From an uncultured Candidatus Saccharibacteria bacterium (GTDB lineage: Bacteria > Patescibacteriota > Minisyncoccia > SW-4-49-11), in contig CAZWIJ010000002.1 of assembly GCA_964633865.1 (NCBI GenBank), forward strand, positions 628 to 64,627: DNA of 64,000 nt, in the 5' to 3' direction. The notes beneath the pieces are model-generated. The model was not told where the DNA came from. It saw nothing but the letters and a program-made list of their open reading frames with translations, and did no database searches. Every line of letters starts with the position of its first letter. Position 1 is the stretch's first letter. Below, piece by piece: positions 12,045 to 39,754 of the stretch. Position numbers and translations under genes: made by a program.

Positions 12045-12084
12045 ACCTGAACTTTTAGAAATATCTATTTTCTATTTAGTAAAT

Positions 12085-12118: not shown

Positions 12119-12143
12119 GTTTATTAACACTTATATTCTAAGC

Positions 12144-12860: not shown

Positions 12861-14651
12861 TTATAAAGTTAACTCAAACTCTTTTATACCCTCCAAATCT
12901 TGTAGCAACTTTTCTTCATTGAGTTTATCCATATAATCTACTTGCAGATTTTTACTTTGGAGTACTGTTAGATGATATTTTATCTGATTATTATCTATAG
13001 TAATTTCTAAACTCAAACCTTGCTGGGTATCTGAAGAAAAAGTCTGATCAAAAATAAAATTACCTAAAGAATAAAAAATAGCTTTTCCATTGTAAATTTC
13101 AATTGGCTGTATCACATGAGGATGATGTCCAATCACAATATCAGCTCCTGCATCTATAAATTGATGAGCTTTTGATTGTTGAGAATTTGAGAAAACTTTT
13201 TTATATTCTATTCCCCAATGTGGATTTACAATAATAAGGTCTGTTTTGTCTGACAAATTCTTTATCTCTGCCAAAATTGGTGCCAAATCTGGATTACTAA
13301 ATTCATGATATCCCACAAAACCTATCTTATAACCTTTAATTTCTTTTATTAAACTTAAATCTTGATTCAAAGGATCTCCAAAATATTCTATTTGATTTTG
13401 GCTTAAATATTCTCTAGATTGAGCTAAGCCTTCTTTCCCAAAATTGAGTGAATGGTTATTAGCAAGTCCAAACAATCCAAAGTTTAATTCCTTTAGAGTT
13501 GGGACAATTTTAGGATCAAAAGTAAAAGACATATTATTTGGAGCAAGAGCTTTGGGTTTATAATCAGTAAAAGATCCTTCCAAATTAGCAATAACCAGAT
13601 CTTTTTCCAACAATTTTTCTTTTAGATTCACAAAAGAATATTCTACTCCTTTTTGATTAATAATTTGCCTAACATATCTATCCAACATCATATCTCCAAA
13701 AAACCATAAGTTGACTTTGTCTCGACTTTGTTTTGTTGGCTCACCTTTACTAAAATAACCTACAAGATAGCTGACAACTTCTTCTAAATCTGGATTGTTT
13801 AGTATTTTGGTAGAATTTGTATTTTTCAGTAATTCAAACTTTTTATATCCAACTTTTTCCAATATTTCCATATTAATTTTCAATGTTTTTGGAGAATCCA
13901 CATCCACTTCGGAGAAATTAGCATAGTCAAATTTTTGGATAATATTTAGACTTTTCTCGTCATTTCGATCACATAAATCACTGTCTGTATTGTGACAAAA
14001 ATCTAGCGAAGCCACAAAAAGATATTTTTCTGGTAAATTATCTGATAAAGTCTCAATAAAATTTTGTAAATCTGATTCTCTTGTTATGTCTTTGGTGATA
14101 ATGGGTAGAATCTTAGCATTAGGTAGATTTCGCTTGATAAATGGAACAATTCCAGAAATTCCATGCTCATTCAAAAAAGGCTTCTCGTCTATATTAATTA
14201 CTTGATCTCTTTTTAATAAATTAATCATATCCAAATCTGGTTCCAAAGTTCCATAGGGAGTTTTCCAACTATATTCAGAAGTTATCAAGCCCCCACTACC
14301 AGCTCCAAAATGATTTGGACTCATCAAAAACACTGTTAGCTCTTCATTAGTTTTCACTTGATTAAAATTTTCTGCTATAAGGTTTTTAGCAATCAAATGA
14401 TGAGGAACGATAATGGCTTTAATATCTTTTTTCTCTGTTGGCACTGATAAATTTTGGAAAGCTTCTTCAAAAAAATTTTTATCTTTAAGATAAGAATAAT
14501 GAATATTTGGATTTTCTGTACTTATAACAGACCCTAGTTGAACTAAATTATCTTTGTTATTTATTGTTTGATTTTTATTCCAAAGGTACACAACACTGAA
14601 ACTTAGAGCAGATATTAGTAGCAATATTATATATTTTAATTTTGTTTGCAT
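12861..14651 (-). CDS. Signal-anchored fusion: Memo1/AmmeMemoRadiSam-B-like domain + CapA/PGA_cap metallophosphatase-like domain
   Basis: N-terminal TM. AIIVPHHLIAKNL...LMSPNHFG...WKTPYGTL (Memo-like). C-terminal LWFFGDMMLDRYV...NPHWGIEYK...IGHHPHVIQP...YSLGNFIFDQ (CapA-type). Confidence 0.5.
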   Translation of the reverse strand: MQTKLKYIILLLISALSFSVVYLWNKNQTINNKDNLVQLGSVISTENPNIHYSYLKDKNFFEEAFQNLSVPTEKKDIKAIIVPHHLIAKNLIAENFNQVKTNEELTVFLMSPNHFGAGSGGLITSEYSWKTPYGTLEPDLDMINLLKRDQVINIDEKPFLNEHGISGIVPFIKRNLPNAKILPIITKDITRESDLQNFIETLSDNLPEKYLFVASLDFCHNTDSDLCDRNDEKSLNIIQKFDYANFSEVDVDSPKTLKINMEILEKVGYKKFELLKNTNSTKILNNPDLEEVVSYLVGYFSKGEPTKQSRDKVNLWFFGDMMLDRYVRQIINQKGVEYSFVNLKEKLLEKDLVIANLEGSFTDYKPKALAPNNMSFTFDPKIVPTLKELNFGLFGLANNHSLNFGKEGLAQSREYLSQNQIEYFGDPLNQDLSLIKEIKGYKIGFVGYHEFSNPDLAPILAEIKNLSDKTDLIIVNPHWGIEYKKVFSNSQQSKAHQFIDAGADIVIGHHPHVIQPIEIYNGKAIFYSLGNFIFDQTFSSDTQQGLSLEITIDNNQIKYHLTVLQSKNLQVDYMDKLNEEKLLQDLEGIKEFELTL

Positions 14652-14687: not shown

Positions 14688-17600
14688 TCAACCTAAAATT
14701 TTTCCACCTAATACTCTTTCTACTTCTTTTATATCAGTAATTCCTTTTAAAACAGCCATTATTCCAGCCATTTCTAAAGTTATCATACCTTCTTTAATTG
14801 CAATATCTTTTAATTCCTGAACATTTGTCATCTTTGGGATTAGTTTTTTTATTTCATCAGATATCACAAATATTTCGTAGATAGCTTGGATTCCCGAATA
14901 TCCGCTTTGATTTTTAAGAGATGGTGATGATTCATAGATAAAATCTTTCATATGATGACTATATTTTATACCTAATTTTTGTTTCAAAATTTCTTTTTCA
15001 CTATCTGTTAGCATTCTTTTTTGTTTGGTTTGTTCATCTAATTTTCTAATAATTCTTTGGGCTACACTAACATTTACAAAAGTTGCTATTTCTGTGAGCC
15101 CAATACCTAAATCGACTAATCTAAGTATTGCCGATGCTGCATCATTGGTGTGAAGTGTAGATAAAAGCAAATGACCTGTGGCTGCTGCTTGAATTGAAGT
15201 CTCAGCTGTCTCTTTATCTCTAATCTCTCCTATCAAAACAACATTTGGATTTTGTCTCAAAAGAGCACGAAGAGCATTAGAAAAAGTATAACCTGATTCA
15301 TTATTTACTGAAGTTTGAAGTATACCTGACATTTTATACTCAATTGGATCTTCAATGGTAATAATTTTTACACCTGGTTGATTGATTGTGTTTAGAGCTG
15401 CATATAATGTTGTAGATTTACCTGCTCCTGTTGGACCTGTGACTAAGATTAATCCTGTTGTTTTCTTTACTTCTTTTTCTAAAATAGCAAGATTATACTC
15501 ATCCATACCAAGTTCTGTCAAAGTTACTCCTTCAATATCTGATCTTAAGATTCTAAGTACTATAGTCTGTCCATATCCACCAGGAACAATTGAGACCCTA
15601 ACATCAAAATTTTCTTCTCCAAAAATTGTAAATCTTCCCTCTTGAATTTCATTAGCTATATCCAATCTCATTCCTGACATTATTTTTACTTGTCCTAGAA
15701 TCTGAGGATAAACTGATTTGGATAATCTAACAGCTTCCATCAAAACTCCATCTACTCTAAATCTGATTATAAGGTTAGCATTGTCTGGTTCTATATGAAT
15801 ATCTGTAGCTTTAGATTGAACTCCTGTTGCCATTATGATTTGTAATTGTTCGTCAATACTCATATCTTCCTTAATTTGATTAATTGTATCTAAAGTTACA
15901 TTTGTCTCTTTGTATTTCTTTAATCTCACTCCTCGGGATAGAGATGATGTCAAACTAGCTTCATAAAGATCATCTATATAATTTGTATTACCAGCAACTG
16001 ACTCAACTTCTACAAGTGAAGTTTCACCATCTAATGCATGCAAAACTCCATCTTGATAAAGTGTGATCATACCATTTTCGATGGATTTTCTAAAAATTTT
16101 AAATTCTGATTCATTCTTTAAGATTAAATCTGCAATATTCTCTTTCATCTCAAAAAGTTCATAAATTGCAAATCTACCTTTATATCCAATCCCTAAACAT
16201 TCTGGACATCCAACTGGTTTATATAAAGTATCCAAATCTCTTGGAATTGTAAGCCCTGATTTAGGAGAAATAACAGCCAAAGCTTTATTGATTTTTTCTT
16301 TTTCTATTTCATCTGGATGATATTCTTCCTTACAATGAGGACATAATCTTCTTAATAATCTCTGTGCCACAAAAAGATTCATAGCAGACACAACAACATT
16401 CGTATCCACATTAAATTCCTTCAATCTGGTCACAATTCCAATAGAATCATTTGTATGAATAGTAGAAAAAACTAAATGACCTGTAATCGCAGCATTGACA
16501 GCTATATTAGCTGTCTCCTTATCTCTAATCTCACCTACCATAACGACATCTGGATCTTGTCTCATAATAGCACGAAGTCCACTAGCAAAAGTATATCCTC
16601 TTTTTACATCTATTTGAGTTTGATTTACACTTTTAAGCCTATATTCAATTGGATCTTCAATTGTAATTATATTCACATCCGAGTGATTGATATAATTAAG
16701 AAAAGCATAAAGGCTCGTTGTTTTACCTGAACCTGTTGGACCTGAAAGCATTACTAAACCTTGTGGTTTATCTAAATTTCTAATAATTTTATCCAAAAAA
16801 ACATCTCTTATCCCAAAAGTATGCACATCTAATTTTTGCATATCTGGATTTAATAATCTCATAACAATCACCTCTCCATTTTTACCTGGAAGAATAGATA
16901 CCCTAACATCAATTGTTTTTAGTTTTACTCCATCCTCATCAGTAAGTACAATTGAAAATCTACCATCTTGAGAAGAAGTGGTAATATTAAGCATTAAAGA
17001 GGCTAAATTTTTTATTCTAGCCACAATAGATTTATAAAAAGTTTTATCAAAATTAATTATATCTTGTAAAACTCCGTCCACTCTATATCTCACCAGTGTA
17101 GAGGTTTCTTTTGGCTCTAAGTGAATATCACTTGTACCAGTAGCTAATGCTCCAGCACAAAAAGTTTGCATAAATTCTGAAATATCAGCTCCTTTTAATT
17201 TACTTGCCAAATATCCTAGACTCTCTATATTTTCTTCAAAAGTTGTCACTAACTTTTCTGGAACCAATAAAGTTTCTTTTAGGACTGGGGTTTTATCTTG
17301 AATAAATTTATATGCATCTAAACCTTTTTTTAAGCTCCTAGATGATATTAAATAGATATCCAAATTATATCCTTCTTGATAAAAGTATTGTAATAAATTT
17401 TTAGTTGTAGGATTATTTACATCCAAGAGGGCTATTTTTAGATTCATACCACCTCTTTGGAAAATAAGCATATTTGTAGCTTTAGCTTGCTCAATTGTAA
17501 TCAATTTTAAAGCTTCAGGATTGATTGGAATAAATTTAAGATTCAGATAAGGTATCCCTATTTCTTCTGCTCTTTTTTCTACAGCTAATTCTTCTGCTCT

Positions 17601-17693
17601 TACTTTCATATCAGAAAGAGTGTTAGTAAGATCTTTATCTTGCCTTAATCTTTGATGAAAACTTTTCCTTTCCCTTTCTTTTAGATATGCCAT
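14688..17693 (-). CDS. Tandem-duplicated (fused) GspE/PilB-type secretion/pilus ATPase, 1001 aa
   Basis: Two complete ATPase cores, each with Walker A (LSGPTGSGKTT; VTGPTGAGKSTT), IEDPIEY, a GEIRDKETA Asp box and an STIHTND/STLHTND His box. The first core carries the CPHC...CPEC tetracysteine; the second lacks it. A GspE_N-like N-terminal domain is present. Confidence 0.8.
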   Translation of the reverse strand: MAYLKERERKSFHQRLRQDKDLTNTLSDMKVRAEELAVEKRAEEIGIPYLNLKFIPINPEALKLITIEQAKATNMLIFQRGGMNLKIALLDVNNPTTKNLLQYFYQEGYNLDIYLISSRSLKKGLDAYKFIQDKTPVLKETLLVPEKLVTTFEENIESLGYLASKLKGADISEFMQTFCAGALATGTSDIHLEPKETSTLVRYRVDGVLQDIINFDKTFYKSIVARIKNLASLMLNITTSSQDGRFSIVLTDEDGVKLKTIDVRVSILPGKNGEVIVMRLLNPDMQKLDVHTFGIRDVFLDKIIRNLDKPQGLVMLSGPTGSGKTTSLYAFLNYINHSDVNIITIEDPIEYRLKSVNQTQIDVKRGYTFASGLRAIMRQDPDVVMVGEIRDKETANIAVNAAITGHLVFSTIHTNDSIGIVTRLKEFNVDTNVVVSAMNLFVAQRLLRRLCPHCKEEYHPDEIEKEKINKALAVISPKSGLTIPRDLDTLYKPVGCPECLGIGYKGRFAIYELFEMKENIADLILKNESEFKIFRKSIENGMITLYQDGVLHALDGETSLVEVESVAGNTNYIDDLYEASLTSSLSRGVRLKKYKETNVTLDTINQIKEDMSIDEQLQIIMATGVQSKATDIHIEPDNANLIIRFRVDGVLMEAVRLSKSVYPQILGQVKIMSGMRLDIANEIQEGRFTIFGEENFDVRVSIVPGGYGQTIVLRILRSDIEGVTLTELGMDEYNLAILEKEVKKTTGLILVTGPTGAGKSTTLYAALNTINQPGVKIITIEDPIEYKMSGILQTSVNNESGYTFSNALRALLRQNPNVVLIGEIRDKETAETSIQAAATGHLLLSTLHTNDAASAILRLVDLGIGLTEIATFVNVSVAQRIIRKLDEQTKQKRMLTDSEKEILKQKLGIKYSHHMKDFIYESSPSLKNQSGYSGIQAIYEIFVISDEIKKLIPKMTNVQELKDIAIKEGMITLEMAGIMAVLKGITDIKEVERVLGGKILG

Positions 17694-17694
17694 A

Positions 17695-18444
17695 TTATTG
17701 ATTCTTTTTCTTAATTCTGAAGTAAATAAATACTCCTAAACCAATTACTAATAATACTATTCCTAAAATTAATGGCCAAATTGGTGTTTTTGTCTCTTCT
17801 GATTCTTCTACTGAATTTTGATTATTTTGTGTTGAATTTGAATCTTGAAATCTTAGTAAAGTTGTTCCCTCTTGATCTCTTATTATTCCATTATTTGCTT
17901 GTAGTGTTTGTTCTGTTTTGGTGGAGTAGACAATGGGTTTATTTATATTTTCATCATAATAACAATCCATTATACAGCTAAGTTCTGTTTCTCCTTGCTC
18001 ATATTCACAAACATTGTTTTGGTTACAAGTAGCATATGTAGTCAAATCTATGTTCAGTTTTGCTCCTGTAGGGCTAATTATATTCAACTGTTTTGCATGA
18101 GGATAATAAGGTAACTGAATTGTATTTACTCCATTTCTTAAATTTTCTTTTACATAAATTGTCCATTTATAATCTGGTGAAAAACCTTCAAAATTAAGTT
18201 CTAAGTAATTATTGTTATTTCTAAAATTTGGATCATCTTTAAAATAGAATTCATATTCTGACTTTATATTAATTTCAGATACTTTTATATTGTTAATATT
18301 TTTATCCAAAAATAGATTATTATTTTCACTATATATATTAATATGATAATATTGCATAGAACTAGTATCTGCCCTAGATATCCTAAGACCCAATATTAAT
18401 ACTAGAATAAATATTAATTTCAGTAAGTTTTTCATATATTTCAT
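17695..18444 (-). CDS. Secreted Cys-rich protein with C-terminal TM anchor plus basic tail (paralog of 19590-20345)
   Basis: N-terminal signal peptide. CNQNNVCEYEQGETELSCIMDC. C-terminus PIWPLILGIVLLVIGLGVFIYFRIKKKNQ. Confidence 0.5.
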   Translation of the reverse strand: MKYMKNLLKLIFILVLILGLRISRADTSSMQYYHINIYSENNNLFLDKNINNIKVSEINIKSEYEFYFKDDPNFRNNNNYLELNFEGFSPDYKWTIYVKENLRNGVNTIQLPYYPHAKQLNIISPTGAKLNIDLTTYATCNQNNVCEYEQGETELSCIMDCYYDENINKPIVYSTKTEQTLQANNGIIRDQEGTTLLRFQDSNSTQNNQNSVEESEETKTPIWPLILGIVLLVIGLGVFIYFRIKKKNQ

Positions 18445-19586
18445 TTACATTTACCACTAACTTCGTCTTCCATCATTTTTTTACAAATAGTATTTGCATC
18501 TGTAGTATTTGTTTTATTATTAGGCTGACTACAACCTTTTATACTAGCCCATTGACAAAGCTTTTCATTTATTTTATTAGCAGGATTATTAAATGCTTCA
18601 CAATCAGTTAATCCTTTAGAATTTAAAAATTTAGCTACTGCCAAGTCTTGATTAGCTGGAGACATATCATAATCCATAGTACCAACTCCCCAGCCACTTC
18701 CTCTTCCTACTGTTGTTCTAGGAACATTTTTTGGAATACCAGCCGCCGCGGCCCATCCTGTCCATGTTGTATCTATCATTTGATATCTACCATAAGCTGT
18801 ACTATTACTTGCTGTTATTTTTCTAGGATGAAAATTTGGTGTATTTTTTATTGTTGAACCACCTACTGCAATATAATACGAATCCGCACTAACATTAGTA
18901 TGCTCATAAAAGTTTATCGTTCTCATAACTGCTTTTACTCCATCTGAAGCTGTTGAATCACTTAACTCTAGACAAGCTACATTTTCAGCTCCTACAGTAC
19001 TACTATTTCCTGTACCTGTTGCACCAGTATTACTTCCACTTACAGCTCCTCCCAAATTAACTTCTCTTGCCAAAAAATATGATGTACTATCACATTTCAC
19101 TCTAAATAAGCTAAAATCTTCTCCTTCTTGCTCAAATTGTAATGCATCAGATTCCGTTCCTCCTCCTCCAAATCCTATATTACTTACTTGAAATCCTAAC
19201 CCTACTAATATAAAATTAAACATTATGAATGCGGATAATGTTAATACTATTCCTAGTATTGCATTCTTAATTATGTCTACTCCTTGCTTATATTTACCTT
19301 GATCTCCTGAGGAGATTACCATATAAAATCCTCCTATTACTATACTTATTACTGCCATTACTCCTAATAATTGAAATAAAAAATTCATTATATCTCTTAC
19401 TAATATAAACATATCACATACTGTACAATCTCTTCCTACTCCACATTGTACCAATCCTCCTTCCGCTCCATACATTATATTGGGGAGCCAAATTAAACTT
19501 AGTATTACTTTTTGTATTATTTTTCTCATATAATATTTATAACTTATATTCAATTTAATTATATCATAGATTTCCTTCATCTTCAT
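18441..19586 (-). CDS. Fusion: signal peptide + VirB2/TrbC-like two-TM hairpin + Gly-rich linker + Rpf-like (transglycosylase-like/lysozyme-fold) domain
   Basis: TM hairpin IMNFLFQLLGVMAVISIVIGGFYMVISSGDQGKYKQGVDIIKNAILGIVLTLSAFIMF. C-terminal AYGRYQMIDTTWTGWAAAAG resembles the Rpf motif YYGGLQF..STW..YGG. Confidence 0.5.
   Translation of the reverse strand: MKMKEIYDIIKLNISYKYYMRKIIQKVILSLIWLPNIMYGAEGGLVQCGVGRDCTVCDMFILVRDIMNFLFQLLGVMAVISIVIGGFYMVISSGDQGKYKQGVDIIKNAILGIVLTLSAFIMFNFILVGLGFQVSNIGFGGGGTESDALQFEQEGEDFSLFRVKCDSTSYFLAREVNLGGAVSGSNTGATGTGNSSTVGAENVACLELSDSTASDGVKAVMRTINFYEHTNVSADSYYIAVGGSTIKNTPNFHPRKITASNSTAYGRYQMIDTTWTGWAAAAGIPKNVPRTTVGRGSGWGVGTMDYDMSPANQDLAVAKFLNSKGLTDCEAFNNPANKINEKLCQWASIKGCSQPNNKTNTTDANTICKKMMEDEVSGKCK
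19062..19500. repeat. ~440-bp near-identical direct repeat, copy 1 (copy 2 at ~20748-21190)
   Basis: Nucleotide sequence is almost identical across the 5' thirds of genes 18441-19586 and 20352-21221, with only a handful of substitutions visible. Confidence 0.8.
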
Positions 19587-19589: not shown

Positions 19590-20345
19590 TTATTTTATTT
19601 TTTTCTTGATTCTAAAATAAATAAATACTCCCAAACCAATTATTAATAATACTATTCCTAAAATTAAAGGCCAGATAGGAGGATTTTTCTGATTTGTTTC
19701 AATTGAGTCATTATCTTGACTATTATCAGAACCAGAAATTCTAGTCAATGTAACTATTCCTTGATCATCTTTAATAAATCCATTTCCCTGATTTAACTTT
19801 TCTTGAGTTTGATCAGAATACACAATTGGCTCACCTGTATAATTAATACAATCTGGATTACACATAGAATCTTCATTTAGCTCGAATTCACAAATTAGAT
19901 TCTGATTGCAAGTAGAAAAATCTCCTACATCCAATGATAGAATATTTGTTTGAGTTTCTACTGACTTTATAGATAATTCCTGAACCCAATTAAGATAAGG
20001 GATTATAATTTCAAAAGATCCAACTTTTGGGTTAAACCCAAAATTATGTTTGTAAGTACCATCATTACCAATAAAATCTATATAAAACTTATATTTACTT
20101 GATTCATTTTCCCAATCCTTGTCACCTTCTACTCCTCTTGAAATCATACCTTGATAAGTATCTTCATCACTAATTTTAGAATTAAAAACTATATTAGGAT
20201 TAATACTTTTATCCAAACTTAGAATATTATTTGGCTCATCATAATATAAATATATTTTATAACCTTCAGCCCTAACAAAACTTGGAATCAAAAAACATAA
20301 TATTATAATGAAATTTAATAGATATTTTTTTAAAAAAGTATGCAT
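19590..20345 (-). CDS. Secreted Cys-rich protein with conserved C-terminal TM anchor (paralog of 17695-18444)
   Basis: CNQNLICEFELNEDSMCNPDC. C-terminus PIWPLILGIVLLIIGLGVFIYFRIKKKIK. Confidence 0.5.
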   Translation of the reverse strand: MHTFLKKYLLNFIIILCFLIPSFVRAEGYKIYLYYDEPNNILSLDKSINPNIVFNSKISDEDTYQGMISRGVEGDKDWENESSKYKFYIDFIGNDGTYKHNFGFNPKVGSFEIIIPYLNWVQELSIKSVETQTNILSLDVGDFSTCNQNLICEFELNEDSMCNPDCINYTGEPIVYSDQTQEKLNQGNGFIKDDQGIVTLTRISGSDNSQDNDSIETNQKNPPIWPLILGIVLLIIGLGVFIYFRIKKKIK

Positions 20346-20351: not shown

Positions 20352-21221
20352 TTACTTTAAAATTTCCAATTTGACTTCTCCTGTACCATCAGCTTTCATA
20401 CCAATAGATTCTGCTGAACCTTGCGATAAATCTATAATTCTAGCATAATTACCAGCACCATCTTTAGTAAATGGACCTCTATCATTAATTCTAACTTCTA
20501 CAGATTTTCCAGTTTTTATATAAGTAACTTTTATTTTAGTTCCAAAAGGTAAACTTCTATGAGCTGCTGTCATTGCATTCTGATCAAAAGTCTCGCCATT
20601 AGCAGTTTTCCTCCCATGAAATCCTGGACCATAATAAGATGCTACTCCTTTTATTGTAGAAACCACTTCTCCGGAATCTGCCGTACTACTTCCTGTTCTT
20701 GCTGTAACACTTTCGCCCACTACACTTGTACCACCACCAACTAAATTCACCTCTCTTTCTAAGAAATATGAAGTACTATCACATTTCACTCTAAACAAGC
20801 TAAAATCTTCTCCTTTTTGCTCAAATTGTAATGCATCAGATTCTTCCCCACCTCCTCCAAATCCTATATTACTTACCTGAAATCCTAACCCTACTAATAT
20901 AAAATTAAACATTATGAATGCGGATAATGTTAATACTATTCCTAGTATTGCATTCTTAATTATGTCTACTCCTTGCTTATATTTACCTTGATCTCCTGAG
21001 GAGATTACCATATAAAATCCTCCTATTACTATACTTATTACTGCCATTACTCCTAATAATTGAAATAAAAAATTCATTATATCTCTTACTAATATAAACA
21101 TATCACATACTGTACAATCTCTTCCTACCCCACATTTTACCAATCCTCCTTCTGCTCCATACATTATATTGGGGAGCCAAATTAAACTTATTCCTATTAT
21201 TTTTTGTAAATACTTTTTCAT
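20352..21221 (-). CDS. Fusion: signal peptide + VirB2/TrbC-like two-TM hairpin + RlpA-type double-psi beta-barrel (DPBB) domain
   Basis: N-terminal ~150 aa nearly identical to 18441-19586. C-terminal ASYYGPGFHGRKTANGETFD...MTAAHRSLPFGTKIKVT...VEVRINDRGPF matches RlpA/DPBB_1. Confidence 0.6.
   Translation of the reverse strand: MKKYLQKIIGISLIWLPNIMYGAEGGLVKCGVGRDCTVCDMFILVRDIMNFLFQLLGVMAVISIVIGGFYMVISSGDQGKYKQGVDIIKNAILGIVLTLSAFIMFNFILVGLGFQVSNIGFGGGGEESDALQFEQKGEDFSLFRVKCDSTSYFLEREVNLVGGGTSVVGESVTARTGSSTADSGEVVSTIKGVASYYGPGFHGRKTANGETFDQNAMTAAHRSLPFGTKIKVTYIKTGKSVEVRINDRGPFTKDGAGNYARIIDLSQGSAESIGMKADGTGEVKLEILK
20748..21190. repeat. ~440-bp near-identical direct repeat, copy 2
   Basis: See copy 1. 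Confidence 0.8.
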
Positions 21222-21225
21222 ATTT

Positions 21226-23838: not shown

Positions 23839-24067
23839 ACTAAAAAATTTTAAACTTTTATGATAATATATTAACATCTTAATCAGAAATTTACAAATAA
23901 AAATTATTATGTTTAAAAAATAATAAAAGCTAATTTGGTATATTATAAGTAAAATATCAAATTAGATATATAAATACTAAATTAAATTTATTATCGAAAT
24001 TACAAAAAAATTATTTATTTTGTAATTTTCTATTTTAACTCTAACTTAATTTAAAAAAAACTTACAA

Positions 24068-24156
24068 ACCCCTACCCCCTTCAAAAAAGGTGGATAAAAA
24101 CTAAAGACTCTTAAATACACCTTTTGAAGGGGTAAAAATCTCTGATTTTTGGGGTT
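24068..24156 (+). repeat. GC-rich structured repeat element, copy A (5' flank of toxin gene)
   Basis: Shares ccccc-ttcaaaaaagg.gga and the 26-bp block aaggggtaaaaatctctgatttttgg with copy B. Contains inverted repeat cccttcaaaa...ttttgaaggg. Confidence 0.5.
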
Positions 24157-24326
24157 GTAGAATTTTAATTTAAAGTATTATTAATTTGATTTTTGGGGTT
24201 GTATTATTTGAAATTTTACCAATCTTATTTTTGGGATTTTATATTATGGCGACAGGGTGTCGCCTTTTCTTCTTTGACCAAATCCGACTTTTTAAGTATA
24301 ATATACACAAGATTAATTTATTTCTT

Positions 24327-24728
24327 ATGCAAAACTTTATTAAAAATTTCCAAGATTGGTTTTCTTTGAAACCTAAATTAGATAATAACAATCATAAACC
24401 ACCTTTTGTGTCAGAAAGAGATCTCTGGTGGTGCCATCTTGGGGAAAATATTGGAACTGAAATTAGTGGTAAATCTAATAGATACACAAGACCTGTTATT
24501 ATTTTTAAGAAACTTTCTAATTATACTTATTTAGTTATACCTACTTCTACAAAAATCAAATCTGGTTCTTGGTTTATAAATTTTGTCTATAAAAATACAA
24601 ATATGATAGCTTGTCTCAACCAAATAAGAGTTATTGACTATCGTAGAATACAAAATCAAATTGGAAAATTAGATATAAATGATTTTAAATCTATTAAAAC
24701 TGGATTTAAAAAATTATACAATTTGTAA
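24327..24728 (+). CDS. MazF/PemK-family toxin-like protein
   Basis: RPVIIFKKLSNYTYLVIPTSTK...ACLNQIRVIDYRRI matches PemK/MazF core motifs (RP.vv......vv.PlTs......dQir.vD..Rl). Start placed at the internal ATG at 24327, because a hairpin plus T-run (ggcgacagggtgtcgcc ttttcttcttt at 24249-24276) lies inside the longer called ORF. Confidence 0.6.
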   Translation: MQNFIKNFQDWFSLKPKLDNNNHKPPFVSERDLWWCHLGENIGTEISGKSNRYTRPVIIFKKLSNYTYLVIPTSTKIKSGSWFINFVYKNTNMIACLNQIRVIDYRRIQNQIGKLDINDFKSIKTGFKKLYNL

Positions 24729-24850
24729 AAAAAAGCCTCCTATCTCTAGGAGGGACGCGACTAGTGTCGAATACAAAATTATTATACCACACCCTTTCTC
24801 CCCTGTCAAATTTAAAATTTTAAAGGATTCACACTCTCTCTATCCTTTTA

Positions 24851-24992
24851 CAACCCCCGTCTCTTACGAGACACCCCCCTTCAAAAAAGGGGGATGAGAT
24901 ACAACTGCTTTAAATTCCCCTCTTGAGGGGTGGCACCGAAGGTGACGGGGTGGATTTCCGAAAAGGGGTAAAAATCTCTGATTTTTGGAGTT
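24851..24992 (+). repeat. GC-rich structured repeat element, copy B (3' flank of toxin gene), with ~60-bp internal insertion
   Basis: Same terminal blocks as copy A. Extra hairpins cccctcttgagggg, caccgaaggtg and gtctcttacgagac. Locally much higher GC than surroundings. Confidence 0.5.
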
Positions 24993-25007
24993 TTAAATAA
25001 CAAAAAA

Positions 25008-25033
25008 GACAGATGATTTCTCATCCGTCTTAA
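25008..25033 (-). terminator. Terminator of pilin-like gene 25057-25668
   Basis: 11-bp stem with 1 mismatch (aagacagatga/tcatccgtctt). On the minus strand it is followed by TTTTTTG. A related copy sits downstream of the next paralog at ~25811-25836. Confidence 0.5.
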
Positions 25034-25056: not shown

Positions 25057-25668
25057 TTATTGGAATGATCCAGTTTGAACTCCTCCAAATACGAATGTTA
25101 AGATTGTATTGGAAGCTGTGAATGCAAAGAATAAGATAACCATACCGATAACTGCATTGGTCATTCTCTTCTGAGCTGTTTCTGTCTTTCCTGCATCTCC
25201 TCCTGCTGTTGCATATTCGAATCCAGCGATCAAGAAGATACCGAATACGATAATTCCCACAAATCCTAAGAACCAGTTAATTACTGTTGATATAGTTCCT
25301 ATCAAATCTTGTGATTGATTAAGCTCTGTGCTTACTAATACTCCAACTTGTCTTGTATTATCTCCTGTTAGATTTACACCTGTACTTCCTGAAGCACCAC
25401 CTACACATCTATTAGCAGTACATATATCAGATGCACACTCCCCATTAGTTGAACAATTCTGATTAGCTGCATATCTACATTTTCCAGCTACACCTGCTGT
25501 TGCATTCTTACATGCAGTTCCTGCTGTACACGTATTACCAGTAGGGCCTCCACAGTCTGCCCCATAATCAACAACTGCAGCATAACCATAGTTAGGAGCT
25601 ACTAATACTAGAGCGAATAGGAACATTGAAGCTATTCCTAAGCTTTTTAATAAATTAAGTTTTTTCAT
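25057..25668 (-). CDS. Secreted Cys-rich protein ending in a VirB2/TrbC-like two-TM hairpin (pilin-like family)
   Basis: Sec signal peptide. Cys-rich insert CGGPTGNTCTAGTACKNA...CSTNGECASDIC. C-terminal INWFLGFVGIIVFGIFLIAGFEYATAGGDAGKTETAQKRMTNAVIGMVILFFAF. Confidence 0.55.
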   Translation of the reverse strand: MKKLNLLKSLGIASMFLFALVLVAPNYGYAAVVDYGADCGGPTGNTCTAGTACKNATAGVAGKCRYAANQNCSTNGECASDICTANRCVGGASGSTGVNLTGDNTRQVGVLVSTELNQSQDLIGTISTVINWFLGFVGIIVFGIFLIAGFEYATAGGDAGKTETAQKRMTNAVIGMVILFFAFTASNTILTFVFGGVQTGSFQ

Positions 25669-25867
25669 ATTATATAATATTAATTATAATAAATTACAGA
25701 AAGTACTATCTTCAGTTTGTACTTCTGATTCAGATTTTATCAAATTCTTTAATTTTTGTCAATTCAATTTGACCTGTGGATAATTAAAGTTTTTGTGGAT
25801 AAGTATATAAACAAAAAAGACAGATGATTTCTCACCTATCTTTTTTTGAAGATTTTATCTTTTAGTA

Positions 25868-26290
25868 TTATTGGAATGATCCTGTCTCAACTCCTCCAAA
25901 TACGAATGATAATATTGTATTAGAAGCTGTGAATGCAAAGAATAAGATAATCATACCTATTACAGCATTTATCATTCTCTTTTGAGCTGTTTCTGTCTTT
26001 CCTGCATCCCCTCCTGCTGTTGCATATTCAAATCCAGCAAGTAAGAAAATTAAGAATACGATAATTCCCACAAATCCTAAGAACCAATTAATTACAATCG
26101 AAATTGTTCCTATCAAATCTTGAGATTGATAAAGTTCTGTACTGACAAGTACTCCAACTTGTCTTGTATTGTCTGGCTGTAAATTTACACCTGATCCATC
26201 AGCATATCCATAACTAGGAGCTCCTAATAATATAGGAAATAGGAACATTATAGTTATTCCTAAATTTTTCAATAAATTAAATTTTTTCAT
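25868..26290 (-). CDS. Pilin-like two-TM hairpin protein (short paralog lacking Cys-rich insert)
   Basis: Signal peptide and C-terminal 100 aa ~90% identical to 25057-25668. The Cys-rich segment is replaced by DGSGVNLQPD. Confidence 0.55.
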   Translation of the reverse strand: MKKFNLLKNLGITIMFLFPILLGAPSYGYADGSGVNLQPDNTRQVGVLVSTELYQSQDLIGTISIVINWFLGFVGIIVFLIFLLAGFEYATAGGDAGKTETAQKRMINAVIGMIILFFAFTASNTILSFVFGGVETGSFQ

Positions 26291-26610
26291 ATTGTATAAT
26301 ATTAATTATAATAAGGCTTATAGATGTACTATCTTCAATTTGTACTTCTATATTATATCAGTTTTTTTAATTTTTGTCAATTTTTATTAACTTACAAATA
26401 AATCTTGTATTTAATTTTTATTTAAAAATATTTATTTTATAAGGAAACGTATCTTATTTTTTTGTCAATTTAAATTAACTTATGAACAAAAAGTATTTGA
26501 GAAAGATTTGAGTAAATTTAAAAATTTTTTGATTAAAAAATAATATTTAAGTATTATTTTCTGGTTTTTGATTTACAAATTTATTTTTTTGTGTATAATA
26601 AATCATAATA

Positions 26611-26683
26611 GGGTATATAGCTCAGTCGGTAGAGCAGAGGACTCTTAATCCTTTGGTCGGTGGTTCGAACCCACCTATGCCCA
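26611..26683 (+). tRNA. tRNA-Lys (anticodon CTT), no encoded CCA
   Basis: Acceptor GGGTATA/TATGCCC (one G-U). D-arm GCTCAGTCGGTAGAGC. Anticodon stem GAGGA/TCCTT, loop CTCTTAA. T-arm GGTGGTTCGAACCCACC. Discriminator A then CAA. Confidence 0.8.
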
Positions 26684-26771
26684 CAAATATTATTTATGTT
26701 TTAAAAAATAAAAAAATAAGTACTTTGTAGAATATACTTATTATTATATTTTATAATTTTTTAGTCATTTA

Positions 26772-27104
26772 CTAAACTTGGAAAACAAACCCTATAATTG
26801 CATTTGTGAGAACAAAGGCAAAGAATAAAATTAAGGCTCCTATCACTGTATTTGTCAATATCTTTACTGAAGACTCTGCTTGTCCTTGATTTCCTCCTGC
26901 TGTTAGATACATGAATCCTGCATAAATTATTAAAATAAATACTATTATTCCTATAAAACCTAGAGTCCAATTAATAGTATTCTGAATATAATCTAAAAGA
27001 GTGCCTTGTGCTACTCCGGTAACACCTGGGTCAGGAATTGCTCCTACTGGAGGAAGTGACTCTTGACCTACAGTTGATGCTAATAATTTTATTGTATTTT
27101 CCAT
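26772..27104 (-). CDS. Pilin-like two-TM hairpin protein (110 aa)
   Basis: IQNTINWTLGFIGIIVFILIIYAGFMYLTAGGNQGQAESSVKILTNTVIGALILFFAF, the same module as the neighbours. Confidence 0.5.
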   Translation of the reverse strand: MENTIKLLASTVGQESLPPVGAIPDPGVTGVAQGTLLDYIQNTINWTLGFIGIIVFILIIYAGFMYLTAGGNQGQAESSVKILTNTVIGALILFFAFVLTNAIIGFVFQV

Positions 27105-27108
27105 ATTA

Positions 27109-27588
27109 TTATACTGCTAATACAGCACTTATTACATAATTTGTTATTAAAAAAGCTCCTATCATCAAAACTAGACCTATTGTAGCATTACTTATACTAG
27201 ATAGAGATTGTTTTGCTTTATTACTATCATCACCTGCTGTCATATAATTAAATCCACTCATCAATACTAAACCAAAAAACACAGTACCCACAAGTCCTAA
27301 TGCCCATCTTATAATTTGAGCTATATAACCTATCAGAGTACCTTCTGTTCTGATACCTGGATTAACTCCTAAAAATTCTCCAAGACCATCTTGTACTGGA
27401 GTTTCTGAGTTAGAATTTCCACCACCATCTTCTGAGGTAGTATCAACACATGTAGAAGTATCTTCGTCACAAACTTTTGGGTCAACACATGAGGGATTAC
27501 AAACAGCATAAACAGAGTTTATATTTATTCCTAAACTACATATTGATAATAAAGTCAGAGTAAAAAATATTTTTTTAGATAAGTTCAT
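27109..27588 (-). CDS. Secreted Cys-rich protein ending in pilin-like two-TM hairpin (159 aa)
   Basis: Signal peptide. CNPSCVDPKVCDEDTSTCVD. IAQIIRWALGLVGTVFFGLVLMSGFNYMTAGDDSNKAKQSLSSISNATIGLVLMIGAF. Confidence 0.5.
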   Translation of the reverse strand: MNLSKKIFFTLTLLSICSLGININSVYAVCNPSCVDPKVCDEDTSTCVDTTSEDGGGNSNSETPVQDGLGEFLGVNPGIRTEGTLIGYIAQIIRWALGLVGTVFFGLVLMSGFNYMTAGDDSNKAKQSLSSISNATIGLVLMIGAFLITNYVISAVLAV

Positions 27589-27630: not shown

Positions 27631-28962
27631 TTATTTCACAAATTCACTTACACTATCTGTAATATTTTGTTCTCCCTTCAGAATACTATCTATGGACTCC
27701 ACTATTCTTTTGTCTTCCTCATAATTATTGGGTTGTTTCCAACTCTGAGCTGTCAATATTTGATCTGCAAATACTCCATAAGTTGGATCCTGTTTTATCG
27801 TATTAACAAGATCTATCCTTGGACTAACTCTTTTAGTGAGTTCAAAATATTTTTGAGATGCTTCTTTGGAAGTAAGAAATTTCAAAAATTTATAAGATGA
27901 TTCAGAATTTTGTGATCTTTTAGCTACAGTATATCCCCAATAATTAGCATAATTAACAGGCAATATACTTGGATCATCTGATATCTGAGGTATTTTGGAT
28001 ACTCCATAATTTAATCTTGGTGATAATGTGGCTAATTGCTCTATATGATATCCATATCCTATCATCATAGCAGCTCTCTTTTGAGCGAACACATCTAGAG
28101 AGTAATTCTGAGCCAAATTCCAAGTATAAAGTGTACTTCTAGGATTAGCAAAATCTGTATAAAATTTTAAAACATTTTCAGCTGATGAAAGATAGTTTTT
28201 TGTTATTTCACTTCCTTCTCTATATTGTATAGTTCCACTTAAATCTATTCCTCCTTGTAACATAAGGAGAGATATAATATCTGGAGATCTTGCAATATTT
28301 GCACCAGCACCCATAGTTATACCAGCTTGAACAATATTTCCATTTAAATCAATTTTTGTTAATTGTTTAGATAAATTTTGAACTTCTTCCCAAGTTGTGG
28401 GTGGATCTTGTATATTTTCAATATAATATAAGTCCTTATTATAAAAGAATGCTAGTGTATCTATAAATAAAGGGAATCCCCAAATTTTTTCATCTTTTAT
28501 AAAATCATTAGGAACTACTTTCACAAAAGAACTGTAATACTCATCAAGAGTCATGACTGAATCTGGCATTGGTTGAGCTAGATTCATTATAGATGCCTGA
28601 TATGGCCATGTATGATGTATAGCAAATATATCAGGGCCTCTATCCTCAGCTAAAGCCTGTACTAACTCTTTTTCATAATCCGTAATTGCAACTTTTTTAT
28701 AGGTAATTTTTATTGTAGGATCTATAGACTGATAAGAGGTCGCTAGTTCATCTATAACTGATGATTCGTCCCATAATCCCCACATAATAATTTCTGTTTG
28801 TGGTACTTCTTCACCTTTTTTAACAACTGGTTCTTTATCTTTATTTTGAAACTGAGGACCTATAAATATCATACCTGCCACTGCTATTGCCATTACTAAA
28901 CCTGCAACAATAAACAACCATTTATTTTTTTCAAATGTATTTAATGAATGATTTGATGCCAT
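27631..28962 (-). CDS. Membrane-anchored extracellular solute-binding protein (ABC-type, family 1-like)
   Basis: N-terminal TM anchor, then IIMWGLWDE...ITYKKV..., length and composition typical of sugar-type SBPs. No cognate permease or ATPase adjacent. Confidence 0.45.
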   Translation of the reverse strand: MASNHSLNTFEKNKWLFIVAGLVMAIAVAGMIFIGPQFQNKDKEPVVKKGEEVPQTEIIMWGLWDESSVIDELATSYQSIDPTIKITYKKVAITDYEKELVQALAEDRGPDIFAIHHTWPYQASIMNLAQPMPDSVMTLDEYYSSFVKVVPNDFIKDEKIWGFPLFIDTLAFFYNKDLYYIENIQDPPTTWEEVQNLSKQLTKIDLNGNIVQAGITMGAGANIARSPDIISLLMLQGGIDLSGTIQYREGSEITKNYLSSAENVLKFYTDFANPRSTLYTWNLAQNYSLDVFAQKRAAMMIGYGYHIEQLATLSPRLNYGVSKIPQISDDPSILPVNYANYWGYTVAKRSQNSESSYKFLKFLTSKEASQKYFELTKRVSPRIDLVNTIKQDPTYGVFADQILTAQSWKQPNNYEEDKRIVESIDSILKGEQNITDSVSEFVK

Positions 28963-33797: not shown

Positions 33798-34658
33798 TTA
33801 TTTCTCAGACAGTATTTTATCGAAATTTTCTACAAATTCTATACTTTGATAAAAAGATATATTAAATCCAGCATCATCTTTATTTTTAAATCCAGCCAAT
33901 GCTGAACCATCTTGGCCTAACTCAATAAAAAAATATTTTGTCTTACTTTTATCAGATGAATCAAAGAAAAAGCTTGCTCCACCAGCTAAAGCATAAGACT
34001 TTGCACTATTTGGACAATTAATTTCTGAAGCTAAATAAGGGTTATCTTCAATTTCTTTTTCTGTTCTACCAAATTGTGTTGCTTCAATATATACTGTTTT
34101 AAAAAACTCATTATTTTGTTTTGCTAAACATTTTTTAGGATCAGCTCCACTTAAAAAATCTTTTTCTACAGTTTGTAATAAAGTTAAATTTGTATCTTTT
34201 TGTAATACTTCAATAGTATCATCATCTCCCACAGTCAATATATTTCCTGATTCTTTGACAGAATAATTTGAATACATATTATTATAAGGATCACTTGGAA
34301 GATAAGTAAAACCTATTCCCAAATTTTCTGAATAGAATATTTTTGTTCCTTCAACTTTATTCTTAAGGTCAAATATTTCTTCTAATTCAGCTTGAGTATA
34401 TTCTTTTTTAACCTCCTCGACTACAGGACCTTCATCTGTCTCCATAGAATCAACCATAGAACTTTCTTCTGTATTAGAAGGTTCTTCTAATGTATTTTCT
34501 TCGGTATCTACCATTACCATTTCTGTTGTTATATTCTTTTTATTTAAATCAAGATGATTTTCACCAGATATAGCTAATAATAGAAACATTGGCACCATTA
34601 ACAATAATGCTATTACTAAAAAGGGTACTTTGACATGTGCTTCTAATAAATTTTTCAT
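33798..34658 (-). CDS. Secreted/signal-anchored acidic protein (paralog A)
   Basis: N-terminal 45 aa identical to the next gene. Acidic low-complexity linker. Shared EEVKKEYTQAELEEIFDLKNKVEGTKIFYS block. Confidence 0.45.
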   Translation of the reverse strand: MKNLLEAHVKVPFLVIALLLMVPMFLLLAISGENHLDLNKKNITTEMVMVDTEENTLEEPSNTEESSMVDSMETDEGPVVEEVKKEYTQAELEEIFDLKNKVEGTKIFYSENLGIGFTYLPSDPYNNMYSNYSVKESGNILTVGDDDTIEVLQKDTNLTLLQTVEKDFLSGADPKKCLAKQNNEFFKTVYIEATQFGRTEKEIEDNPYLASEINCPNSAKSYALAGGASFFFDSSDKSKTKYFFIELGQDGSALAGFKNKDDAGFNISFYQSIEFVENFDKILSEK

Positions 34659-34685: not shown

Positions 34686-35504
34686 TTATTTTAGAAATCT
34701 TATTGACTCTGTAAAATGTTGTTTTTCAATACCATTAGAAATATATCCATCTTGTGTACTATATAATACATAAGAATATTTAGAAGCATTTAATTTATCT
34801 TCGATAAAATAACTAGCAGCATTAGTGACAGCATAAGGTTCTGCTGAAGAACAATTATAAGCACTTTCCCAATATGGGATATCATTATCTTCTGTGGTTA
34901 TATAATTTATCCTTAAAATATTATGTGCTTCATTATTTATAAACCCCCAATCTTGTGGCTCAACAAAACATTTTTCAGGATTAATTCCTTTTAAAAATCT
35001 ATCTTCTATAGCTTGTTGTAAAGTCTGATCAGATTTCTTTTCAAATACTTCAATTCTAGGAACATTATCAAATTCACTACCTTGAATCCTTACCACATTA
35101 CCAGCTTCAATAAATTTAATTTCTTGTTTATCATTACCATATGGATAAGGTAAATAAGTAAACCCTATTCCTAAATTCTTTGAATAAAATATTTTTGTTC
35201 CTTCAACTTTATTCTTAAGATCAAATATTTCTTCCAATTCTGCTTGGGTATATTCTTTTTTTACTTCTTCTACTGGTGTATCAATATTTTTAGTATCCGT
35301 AATAGTACTTTCTTCTGTCTCCATAGAATCAAGCATAGAGCTTTCTTCTCTATCTACCATTACAACCTCCGTTGTTGTATTCTTTTTATTTAAATCAAGA
35401 TGATTTTCACCAGATATTGCTAATAATAGGAACATTGGTACCATTAACAATAATGCTACTACTAAAAAAGGTACTTTGACATGTGCTTCTAATAAATTTT
35501 TCAT
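34686..35504 (-). CDS. Secreted/signal-anchored acidic protein (paralog B)
   Basis: Same N-terminus and central block as paralog A. Divergent C-terminal domain. Confidence 0.45.
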   Translation of the reverse strand: MKNLLEAHVKVPFLVVALLLMVPMFLLLAISGENHLDLNKKNTTTEVVMVDREESSMLDSMETEESTITDTKNIDTPVEEVKKEYTQAELEEIFDLKNKVEGTKIFYSKNLGIGFTYLPYPYGNDKQEIKFIEAGNVVRIQGSEFDNVPRIEVFEKKSDQTLQQAIEDRFLKGINPEKCFVEPQDWGFINNEAHNILRINYITTEDNDIPYWESAYNCSSAEPYAVTNAASYFIEDKLNASKYSYVLYSTQDGYISNGIEKQHFTESIRFLK

Positions 35505-38644: not shown

Positions 38645-39079
38645 TTAATTTCTTAAATTAAAAGTATTAACTTTTAATTCTGTTATTGAATCTTTAATAT
38701 CCAACTCTTCTGCTACAGCAGAAGTTATTACTAAGTCAGATTTGTTTTCGTAATTTAATCTAGCACTGACTCTTACTATTACTGACCTAGAATTTTTTAA
38801 GTTAGTAAGAATTATTGTCTCTCCAATAGACAAATTTTTATGAGCGGCAATAAATTTCTCAGTATTTAAAGTTTTTCCATTAAAAAAACTCTCATTAGAA
38901 TTTTTCTGACTAACACTAACCTTATATATGTACTCTTCTGTTCTTATTATATCTTCTTTCAAAGAATCTTTAATAAGTAGAACTGCAGACACAGCCATGC
39001 TTATACAAATCAGAAATACCATAAGTGATTCCAATGTAGTAATTTTTCTTATCTTTCTTTTTAGTCTTCTAAAAGACAT
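38645..39079 (-). CDS. RlpA-like DPBB domain protein, N-terminally anchored
   Basis: GKTLNTEKFIAAHKNLSIGETIILTNLKNSRSVIVRVSAR...ITSAVAEELDI matches the RlpA pattern TASGE.fd...tAAH..LpfGt.v.V.N..NgrsvvvRvNDRGP....r.iDLS..AA..L. Confidence 0.6.
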   Translation of the reverse strand: MSFRRLKRKIRKITTLESLMVFLICISMAVSAVLLIKDSLKEDIIRTEEYIYKVSVSQKNSNESFFNGKTLNTEKFIAAHKNLSIGETIILTNLKNSRSVIVRVSARLNYENKSDLVITSAVAEELDIKDSITELKVNTFNLRN

Positions 39080-39250: not shown

Positions 39251-39754
39251 CTATTCAGCAATAGTTATGACTTTAGTTTTAAGCTCAGTAATAGCTTCTC
39301 TGATATCAAGAGCTTGTGCAGCTCTTTCAGACAATATTAATCCATCTGTACTTCTATCATTTATCCTTACCTTGATCATATGACTATTCTCAGGATTAAT
39401 AACTATAATCTCTGTGCCAAATGCCAAAGTGGGATGGGCTGCGGTGAAACTATTGGAATCAAAAAATTCACCACTTGCAGTTAGTTTCCCATTAAAGAAA
39501 GAATCACTCCATGAGGTAGAGATTAATATAATGTCACTTTCTATATTCTCATAATATGGATATTTTGAGACATTTTCTTTTTGTTCTGGCTTAAATAAAG
39601 CTCCAACAATATATATTGTAAAACCAGAAATAATAATTGCTAATACAAGATAACCCACATAGAAATATCTTGTATTTCTATTAATATAATTTTCTTGATT
39701 CTCTTGTTTTCTTTTCTCAAATTTTCTTCTTGATCTAGATCTTGATATTGACAT
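39251..39754 (-). CDS. RlpA-like DPBB domain protein, N-terminally anchored (paralog)
   Basis: GKLTASGEFFDSNSFTAAHPTLAFGTEIIVINPENSHMIKVRINDRSTDGLILSERAAQALDI. Confidence 0.65.
   Translation of the reverse strand: MSISRSRSRRKFEKRKQENQENYINRNTRYFYVGYLVLAIIISGFTIYIVGALFKPEQKENVSKYPYYENIESDIILISTSWSDSFFNGKLTASGEFFDSNSFTAAHPTLAFGTEIIVINPENSHMIKVRINDRSTDGLILSERAAQALDIREAITELKTKVITIAE

Follow-up and report, generated by a model that had tools for sequence, protein, structure and literature searches.

The 64-kb stretch of contig CAZWIJ010000002.1 that we analyzed (the window) encodes six proteins that share a two-helix module, a predicted membrane hairpin belonging to the T4SS_pilin family (Pfam PF18895). 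Four of them, p159, p110, p140, and p203, are encoded within 2.5 kb on the minus strand, between serS and the gene pair formed by gyrA and a gene for a substrate-binding protein (SBP). This array is an instance of a published phenomenon, the VirB2-like gene arrays of Patescibacteria, and it brings three new details: a hypervariable cassette in p203, fusions of the hairpin to lytic transglycosylase domains, and a locus that is linked to SBP and unlinked to virB4. We consider it probable, though well short of certain, that the hairpin proteins are non-redundant VirB2-like subunits which build, or seed the assembly of, a filament or conduit at the cell surface that serves in contact with a host.

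Alignment of the four array proteins shows that each ends in a module of about 75 residues, consisting of a helix, a conserved loop, and a second helix. A search of the window with a hidden Markov model (HMM) built from this module yields six copies and no more, with E values of 1e-34 to 1e-37; the next-best match has an E value of about 1. The six copies are thus a real observation, far beyond chance. The two copies outside the array belong to p289 and p381 (Table 1). A first-pass annotation, made from the DNA sequence alone, had described four open reading frames with a common C-terminal two-helix module and six copies of it in 13 kb; coordinates, alignment, and HMM bear out the four frames and the count of six, while the span shrinks to about 9 kb. 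Under the published definition of an array (at least two PF18895 or PF04956 genes, in tandem or with one non-pilin gene between them, in a Patescibacteria genome; PMC12102498), the four genes qualify, a tRNA gene being the sole interruption.

Table 1. Positions in the window of the hairpin genes and of the features discussed with them (aa, amino acids; Cys, cysteine; TM, transmembrane helix)
Feature	Position	Strand	Description
SBP	27631..28962	-	Sugar-type substrate-binding protein (SBP_bac_1) with a membrane anchor; opens the conserved locus
p159	27109..27588	-	159 aa; signal peptide, 4-Cys motif, Gly/Ser/acidic linker, T4SS_pilin hairpin at ~88-159
p110	26772..27104	-	110-aa hairpin paralog; no canonical signal peptide, 0 Cys
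tRNA-Lys (CUU)	26611..26684	+	Found by ARAGORN; between p110 and p140
Spacer	26291..26610		320 bp, 14.4% GC, divergent promoter-like sites
p140	25868..26290	-	140-aa minimal paralog; signal peptide and hairpin, 0 Cys
p203	25057..25668	-	203-aa p140 duplicate with two-module 8-Cys insert
Hypervariable cassette of p203	25385..25578	-	Starts just past YGYA (signal-peptide cleavage site), ends near 'GVNL'
p289	20352..21221	-	289 aa; signal peptide, CxxxxxCxxC, T4SS_pilin hairpin, C-terminal RlpA-type DPBB lytic transglycosylase domain
p251	19590..20345	-	Partner protein; signal peptide, ~190-aa ectodomain (4 Cys), C-terminal TM, basic tail (hydropathy)
p381	18441..19586	-	381 aa; signal peptide, Cys motif, T4SS_pilin hairpin, low-complexity linker, lambda-lysozyme-like domain
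p249	17695..18444	-	Partner protein; paralog of p251

Five of the six copies score above the gathering cutoff of the Pfam T4SS_pilin model (26.6 bits): p381 (36.9 bits, E = 4e-9), p289 (36.7 bits, E = 4.6e-9), p203 (32.4 bits, E = 1e-7), p159 (31.8 bits, E = 1.5e-7), and p140 (30.6 bits, E = 3.5e-7). The sixth, p110, falls slightly under it (24.3 bits, E = 3.2e-5); its homology is clear from the window-derived HMM (E = 6e-36; p159 gives 1e-34), and its ortholog in the closely related locus L007 has a precomputed PF18895 match. A search among 5.8 billion proteins returned PF18895 proteins exclusively. Few homologs bear names; those from Parcubacteria go by "type secretion system pilin" and those from Patescibacteria by "TrbC/VirB2 family protein." One homolog (P0066) has PF18895 and PF04956 together. 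The family is large, as its profile recovers 58,339 representatives of 50%-identity clusters at E ≤ 1e-3 among 1.84 billion. Hydropathy, alignment, and AlphaFold models agree on the architecture of the family, a leader followed by two hydrophobic helices with a conserved loop between them, the leader of p110 being short. At the level of sequence, membership in PF18895 is secure.

The predicted topology is VirB2-like, with a type I-like leader, an acidic segment before the helices, a first transmembrane helix (TM1), a net-basic loop, a second one (TM2), and a short tail. Each protein would insert as a membrane hairpin with its N terminus outside, the signal peptide being cleaved in three of the four small proteins; TM1 would run inward, a conserved loop of about 20 residues (GFEYATAGGD..K....A..R..NA) would lie in the cytoplasm, and TM2 would return to leave the C terminus outside. 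The predicted cytoplasmic loop is the most conserved part of the hairpin, above the transmembrane helices. In the AlphaFold model of p203, the helices span residues 122 to 154 and 159 to 195 with a predicted local distance difference test score (pLDDT) of 83 to 91; the Cys-rich insert is not modeled (pLDDT < 50). Because both termini would face out, domains on either end of the hairpin would be displayed outside the cell, namely, the N-terminal Cys-rich modules of p159 and p203 and, as we propose from this topology, the C-terminal lytic transglycosylase domains of p289 and p381.

The first two genes of the array encode paralogs that appear to be conserved and specialized. p159 carries its four cysteines at C30, C34, C40, and C47 and has two transmembrane-like helices by hydropathy. 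The start of p110 lies 4 nucleotides past the p159 stop, and its short leader is conserved among orthologs of the 112-aa class. Since p110 has only this leader, three rather than all four small proteins, as the first-pass annotation had it, are predicted to undergo classical Sec export.

Direct repeats (D1 and D2), which extend into the flanks and include promoter and terminator, mark p140 and p203 as tandem duplicates. The two proteins are 84% identical in amino acid sequence overall and 92% in the core, close to the 90% first estimated, but their signal peptides, which that estimate had included, are only 69% identical. A block of 63 amino acids with 8 cysteines is found in p203 and is missing from p140, much as had been noticed at first sight. 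p140 is monocistronic, with a promoter-like site at 26352-26380 on the minus strand (TTGACA-17-TATAAT, 12/12, with an extended -10 TG) and a terminator-like hairpin at 25813-25846; this consensus promoter and its own terminator suggest that p140 is the minimal and probably abundant subunit. p203 has its own promoter-like site (25734-25762) and terminator (25006-25031). The p140 ortholog in L007 is likewise 140 amino acids long and differs in the core by 0.031 nonsynonymous (dN) and 0.488 synonymous (dS) substitutions per site. Core dS between p140 and p203 (0.50) equals that between the p140 orthologs of the window and L007 (0.49), and the duplication is therefore about as old as the split between these two species.

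We compared p203 with its orthologs in three lineages: P0004 (locus L007), P0002 (L008), and P0005 (L011). All three keep 84 to 92% DNA identity in the upstream region, signal peptide, and hairpin, and the flanks in L007 (88 to 92%) exceed the 81 to 84% of neighboring genes. Between them, the cassette of p203 has no detectable DNA similarity to any of the three loci, and the encoded inserts are unrelated or highly diverged, in line with the expectation that the array varies among related strains. Substitution rates separate the two parts of the protein as well: insert dN is 0.66 to 1.1 and dS 0.85 to 1.4, whereas core dN is 0.02 to 0.08 and dS 0.28 to 0.45. The dN/dS ratio of the hairpin core, about 0.05 to 0.15, indicates that it is under purifying selection. 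Because dN and dS of the insert are both near saturation, these values point to recombination in the conserved flanks that brought in old, divergent alleles of the insert, and not just to fast substitution in place.

Every insert has an even number of cysteines, 8 in p203 (two 4-Cys modules) and 4 in each other allele. Across alleles and paralogs the counts are 8, 4, 4, 4, and 4, with zero in p140 and p110, and the Cys-rich blocks are indeed modular, as first described. The inserts of P0004 and P0005 share the pattern C-x13-C-x5-C-x13/15-C and are 42% identical; the p203 insert has in common with them just the short motif C.AG.AC[KR][ND]. Pfam searches with the isolated Cys-rich inserts gave nothing significant. 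No silent, pilS-like cassettes with alternative inserts are present in the window, and across the array, same-strain contigs recovered from several metagenomes agree at 99.9 to 100% identity, so there is no evidence of switching within a population. Together, these results suggest that p203 is a duplicate of p140 and that strains swap its exposed, disulfide-rich tip by recombining within the conserved sequence on either side; this variable tip may serve as a surface for recognition or evasion.

The hairpins outside the array are fused to predicted peptidoglycan-degrading enzymes. The C-terminal domain of p289 matches PF03330 (DPBB; E = 1e-21) and TIGR00413 (rlpA; E = 1.7e-39). A profile of the C-terminal domain of p381, made from 11 homologs including p381 itself, has a match to lambda lysozyme (3d3d/1am7; E = 1e-4). 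The invariant Glu of this domain family ("YYEG") aligns opposite the Glu of "SEG," the catalytic residue of lambda lysozyme; GRYQ is common to both, and several homologs are labeled "muramidase (phage lysozyme)" by JGI. This profile similarity, which includes the region of the catalytic Glu, places the p381 domain with the lambda-lysozyme type as judged from sequence; a Foldseek search of AlphaFold models against the PDB did not recover the lysozyme-like domain. A third kind of lytic domain, SLT, is fused to the hairpin in the related locus L012. p289 and p381 would cut peptidoglycan locally.

The 5' regions of the two fusion genes (19054-19531 and 20743-21223) are 94% identical, and from an internal ATG (M20, nucleotide 19529) the N terminus of p381 matches the p289 signal peptide; this ATG is probably the true start. 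We considered length polymorphism of p381 (381, 379, 363, and 344 amino acids) as a sign of real indels and rejected it, since the lengths reflect differences in start-codon calls and one p289/p381 chimera. The chimera, P0078 (363 amino acids, on a JGI contig), joins the p289 signal peptide to the p381 body and is either a product of recombination between the near-identical 5' regions or an assembly chimera.

In classical type IV secretion system (T4SS) plasmids, the lytic transglycosylase VirB1 is encoded directly upstream of VirB2, in the order virB1-virB2-virB3. The fusions echo this order, which favors the filament reading; in the window both functions reside in one polypeptide. Most Patescibacteria with VirB2-like genes lack a recognizable VirB1 (PMC12102498), and the hairpin-lytic transglycosylase fusions are candidates for filling the missing role. 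We found no paper describing such fusions in a literature search of limited coverage. Each fusion gene is followed by a gene for a partner protein; p251 matches no Pfam or NCBIfam family, Pfam searches with p249 and p251 gave nothing significant, and homologs of p251 come after the fusion gene in L012, L013, L017, and L021. Elsewhere in the window, a 167-aa membrane-anchored protein (39251-39754, minus strand) is DPBB/RlpA-like by Pfam, so that at least one further small protein of the lytic transglycosylase type is encoded besides p289; its 144-aa neighbor (38645-39079, minus strand) looks related by eye and has no Pfam match.

The array is part of a locus conserved in related Parcubacteria/Paceibacteria metagenome-assembled genomes (MAGs), which are the nearest genomic loci to the window; the window itself stems from a low-GC relative of Parcubacteria/Paceibacteria. 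In eight of these loci (L012, L013, L015, L017, L020, L021, L023, and L025; about 40 to 55% protein identity), hairpin genes occur in the same order: a hairpin-lytic-enzyme fusion, a gene of about 240 codons, and an ectodomain-plus-hairpin protein of 150 to 260 amino acids, followed by copies of about 113, about 130 to 134, and about 140 to 160 amino acids and then a 150- to 320-aa protein with a terminal hairpin. Four of them (L012, L013, L017, and L025) have gatB, a lactamase_B-like gene, gyrA, a methyltransferase gene, and SBP upstream of the block and rpsL, rpsG, and fusA at a distance downstream; within 10 kb of their arrays there is no virB3, virB4, virB6, or virD4 gene. The SBP of the window matches SBP_bac_1 and SBP_bac_8 of Pfam and carbohydrate SBP models of NCBIfam, and its orthologs (about 44% identity) immediately precede the hairpin genes in the relatives, the SBP stop overlapping the start of the fusion gene by 4 nucleotides in L013, L017, and L025.

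BLASTP connects each window protein to a position in this order. p159 matches the first small gene, with positional orthologs in L012, L013, L017, L021, and L025; p140 and p203 match the gene of about 130 codons; p289 and p381 match the fusion gene; and p249 and p251 match its ~240-aa partner. p110 matches the gene of about 113 or that of about 150 codons, ambiguously. The division into major and minor paralog classes suggested by the first-pass annotation fits these positional orthologs. In the window and in L007 (about 82 to 84% DNA identity), the cluster is split and the fusion/partner pairs are duplicated; the pairs now follow serS and a YibE/F gene and lie directly upstream of a gene for a fused PilB/GspE and PilT/ComGA-like ATPase.

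Published work gives these genes a context. The survey by Quiñonero-Coronel et al. (2025, PMC12102498), which applied the PF18895 model to Patescibacteria, counted 441 VirB2-like arrays of 2 to 11 genes each in 383 assemblies; of 1948 assemblies, 1135 had a pilin gene in the vicinity of virB4. In Ca. Southlakia epibionticum, the pilin array inside the T4SS cluster is essential (Wang et al. 2023, PMC10633639; reviewed in PMC12857230). Like these arrays, that of the window is chromosomal and not on a mobile element: the window (28.3% GC overall) also holds gatCAB, murB, dnaX, gyrA, serS, secY with the ribosomal-protein operon, recA, rpoD, and dnaG. Unlike them, it has no adjacent virB4 cluster, it lies between gyrA/SBP and serS near the probable replication terminus, two of its proteins (p140 and p203) are 84% identical compared with a maximum of 54% within arrays of the survey (PMC12102498), and it features a strain-specific hypervariable cassette and two members fused to lytic transglycosylase domains. 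The position of the terminus is suggested by the cumulative GC skew, which is maximal at about 9000-12500, and by the switch in gene orientation there (genes converge, plus strand on the left and minus strand on the right); it would lie about 13 to 15 kb from the array.

Compared with canonical VirB2, TrbC, and TraA pilins (PF04956; MPF_T and MPF_F systems), the window proteins are similar in their signal peptide, two hydrophobic helices, short net-basic loop, predicted external termini, and, for p110 and p140, small mature size. They differ in their longer, highly conserved loop, in the passenger domains at their N or C terminus, in the lack of a virB3 or virB4 neighbor, and in a similarity that remains below threshold; the host type is moreover reported to be monoderm (PMC12857230). 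The antigenically variable VirB2 families of Anaplasma and Bartonella and the pilE/pilS system of type IV pilins in Neisseria likewise combine several paralogs, a variable exposed segment, and a conserved assembly core. What differs here is that the variation seen is allelic replacement between strains and that the window holds no silent cassettes; the Neisseria pilin fold is also unrelated.

We infer filament formation from how the hairpins are built and from reports that the family is linked to virB4 and essential in other Patescibacteria. By analogy with VirB2 pilins and the Southlakia array, the hairpins would most likely polymerize into a filament or conduit at the surface, or nucleate one, for host-cell contact, presumably with the help of a VirB4-type machine. 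A number of results weigh against this reading. The canonical TrbC/VirB2 model (PF04956) reaches only 17 bits against a cutoff of 27.9, and for p140 and p203 alone; hhalign of the family profile with eight annotated VirB2/TrbC proteins, taken from conjugative MPF_T plasmids, gives a probability of 3% (E = 0.014). The family profile finds no solved pilin among PDB sequences, and tblastn with p140 found nothing among plasmids and phages. Foldseek with two AlphaFold models returned only generic helical-hairpin matches in the PDB, as hairpins resemble many unrelated folds; among pilins, the conjugation pilus of Aeropyrum pernix scored best (8dfu; probability 0.85, TM score of 0.68 on the target, E = 3.1). 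No virB3, virB4, virB6, or virD4 gene is present in the window or in the approximately 5 to 9 kb of contig beyond each end, and the papers we consulted report no filament built from the PF18895 family. PF18895 membership is secure; membership in the canonical VirB2 family, to which homology is below threshold by sequence, is not demonstrated; "pilin-like," the term of the first-pass annotation, holds in the former sense.

The family also includes much longer proteins. Single polypeptides contain 2 to 11 concatenated hairpins with no signal peptides between them (P0104, of 552 amino acids, has six, and P0114 is another example), and in Uhrbacteria-like and other genomes (loci L026-L093) the signal peptide and hairpin are the N-terminal module of proteins of about 650 and of 2700 to 3500 amino acids. 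These proteins fit a membrane anchor as well as they fit a pilin. The hairpin could accordingly be a general two-helix anchor or scaffold for extracellular domains, the copies without such domains being membrane-resident partners or components of an oligomeric ring. Its fusion to three kinds of lytic domain, the conservation of the array without a nearby virB4 in the relatives examined, and the statistically unsupported homology to real VirB2 all favor such an anchor, the main rival to the filament reading, which we nevertheless regard as somewhat unlikely. A mere anchor does not explain why p110 and p140, which have no passenger, are kept as distinct paralogs under purifying selection, and the greater conservation of the cytoplasmic loop than of the transmembrane helices suggests contact with a cytoplasmic machine or with lipid. 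Fusions are also compatible with polymerization: type IV pili include modular pilins with grafted functional domains, such as PilB and PilC of Streptococcus sanguinis. p289 and p381 resemble these in concept, as a polymerization module that displays an extra domain, although they belong to another pilin superfamily with another assembly machine and their incorporation into a filament is hypothetical. In many other Patescibacteria, finally, the family lies in virB4 clusters and is essential there (PMC12102498, PMC10633639).

A bolder reading, which we offer as speculation with little expectation that it will prove correct, would make the virB4-unlinked locus a self-contained surface device, in which the hairpins, as "modular pilins" in a filament or a membrane array, display peptidoglycan-cutting enzymes and a strain-specific, disulfide-rich recognition tip so as to recognize and breach the wall of the host. 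The co-transcribed SBP might then capture released muropeptides or glycans. If true, the VirB2 fold would here underlie a new functional class, distinct from a T4SS accessory.

The gene directly downstream of p249 encodes a 1001-aa protein (14688-17693, minus strand; conserved in L007), which combines a PilB/GspE-type ATPase with MshEN (about residues 1 to 570) and a ComGA/PilT-like ATPase (about residues 600 to 1000). In the window and in L007, p289, p251, p381, p249, and this double ATPase are arranged head to tail with gaps or overlaps of 1 to 6 nucleotides, an arrangement that would suit assembly of the hairpins by a machine like that of type IV pili or type II secretion rather than by a T4SS. 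We consider this very unlikely. No such ATPase lies within 10 kb of the hairpin cluster in L012, L013, L017, or L025; the hairpin proteins have no N_methyl (PF07963) match and no class III (prepilin) signal, differing from type IV pilins in their type I-like leader and two C-terminal helices; and a more likely client is encoded 2 to 3 kb beyond the left end of the window, where there is a genuine N_methyl type IV pilin gene (L102, 1662-2267). Since the linkage to the hairpin genes is lineage specific and this pilin gene lies just outside the window, the double ATPase most likely serves type IV pili. Directly downstream of it, a 596-aa protein (12861-14651, minus strand) fuses Memo/AmmeMemoRadiSam-B-like and CapA/PGA_cap-like domains.

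The tRNA-Lys gene inside the array had been taken for a hotspot of recombination or integration. Its position and orientation are the same in L007 and L001, and nine syntenic loci from more distant relatives have arrays without it; it is therefore a stable, lineage-specific resident, which probably arrived in the rearrangement that also divided the cluster. The adjoining 320-bp spacer is as AT rich as first described (14.4% GC against 28.3% for the window), and its composition is explained by divergent promoter-like sites, that of p140 and one for the tRNA at 26572-26599 on the plus strand (TTTACA-16-TATAAT, 11/12). Although the tRNA lies beside this spacer and accessory genes vary nearby (a PemK-like toxin gene in the window and a YhcG-like nuclease gene in L007), it is highly improbable that the array is, or borders, a tRNA-Lys-targeted island whose hotspot drives copy and insert variation, and we rejected this candidate: the tRNA and the pilin genes on either side of it match L007 in order (about 84% identity, same neighbors), the window holds no integrase, att-like repeat, or duplicated tRNA 3' end, the toxin insert has flanking direct repeats of its own that are unrelated to the tRNA, and the variable points lie beyond p140 as seen from the tRNA, at distances of 0.4 to 2.5 kb.

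The first variable point, between p140 and the variable copy, holds a YhcG/DUF1016 nuclease gene in L007. The second, between the variable copy and serS, holds the PemK-like toxin gene in the window, another gene in L007, and nothing in L008 and L011. The PemK/MazF-like toxin frame (24186-24728, plus strand) sits in an insert of about 0.9 kb (24062-24995) that is absent from L007, L008, and L011; no antitoxin was identified. It is bounded by exact direct repeats (24075-24095/24875-24895 and 24127-24152/24963-24988) which contain GC-rich hairpins, and a related repeat occurs in L007 (9566-9766) beside the nuclease insert. The toxin insert looks like a small mobile or accessory cassette. A 17-nucleotide inverted match (16/17) between the 5' end of the tRNA-Lys gene (26608-26624) and p159 coding sequence (27317-27333) probably arose by chance.

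Patescibacteria account for a large share of bacterial diversity and apparently live attached to other cells, and few envelope systems have been shown to be essential for an attached lifestyle; VirB2-like arrays count among them, on evidence from one cultivated species. The locus described here is a compact, well-delimited case for the study of array evolution, with a constant subunit, a tip-swapping duplicate, and enzyme-fused hairpins, and it makes testable predictions as to which subunit is abundant, which part is exposed at the surface, and which part sets host range. The new details are worthwhile for specialists; none overturns current understanding or amounts to a new kind of system.

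Another local duplication of surface proteins is found at 33798-34658 and 34686-35504 on the minus strand, where tandem paralogs of 286 and 272 amino acids are near-identical over their first ~45 residues (an N-terminal membrane anchor), have diverged in their acidic or ectodomain parts, and match no Pfam family.

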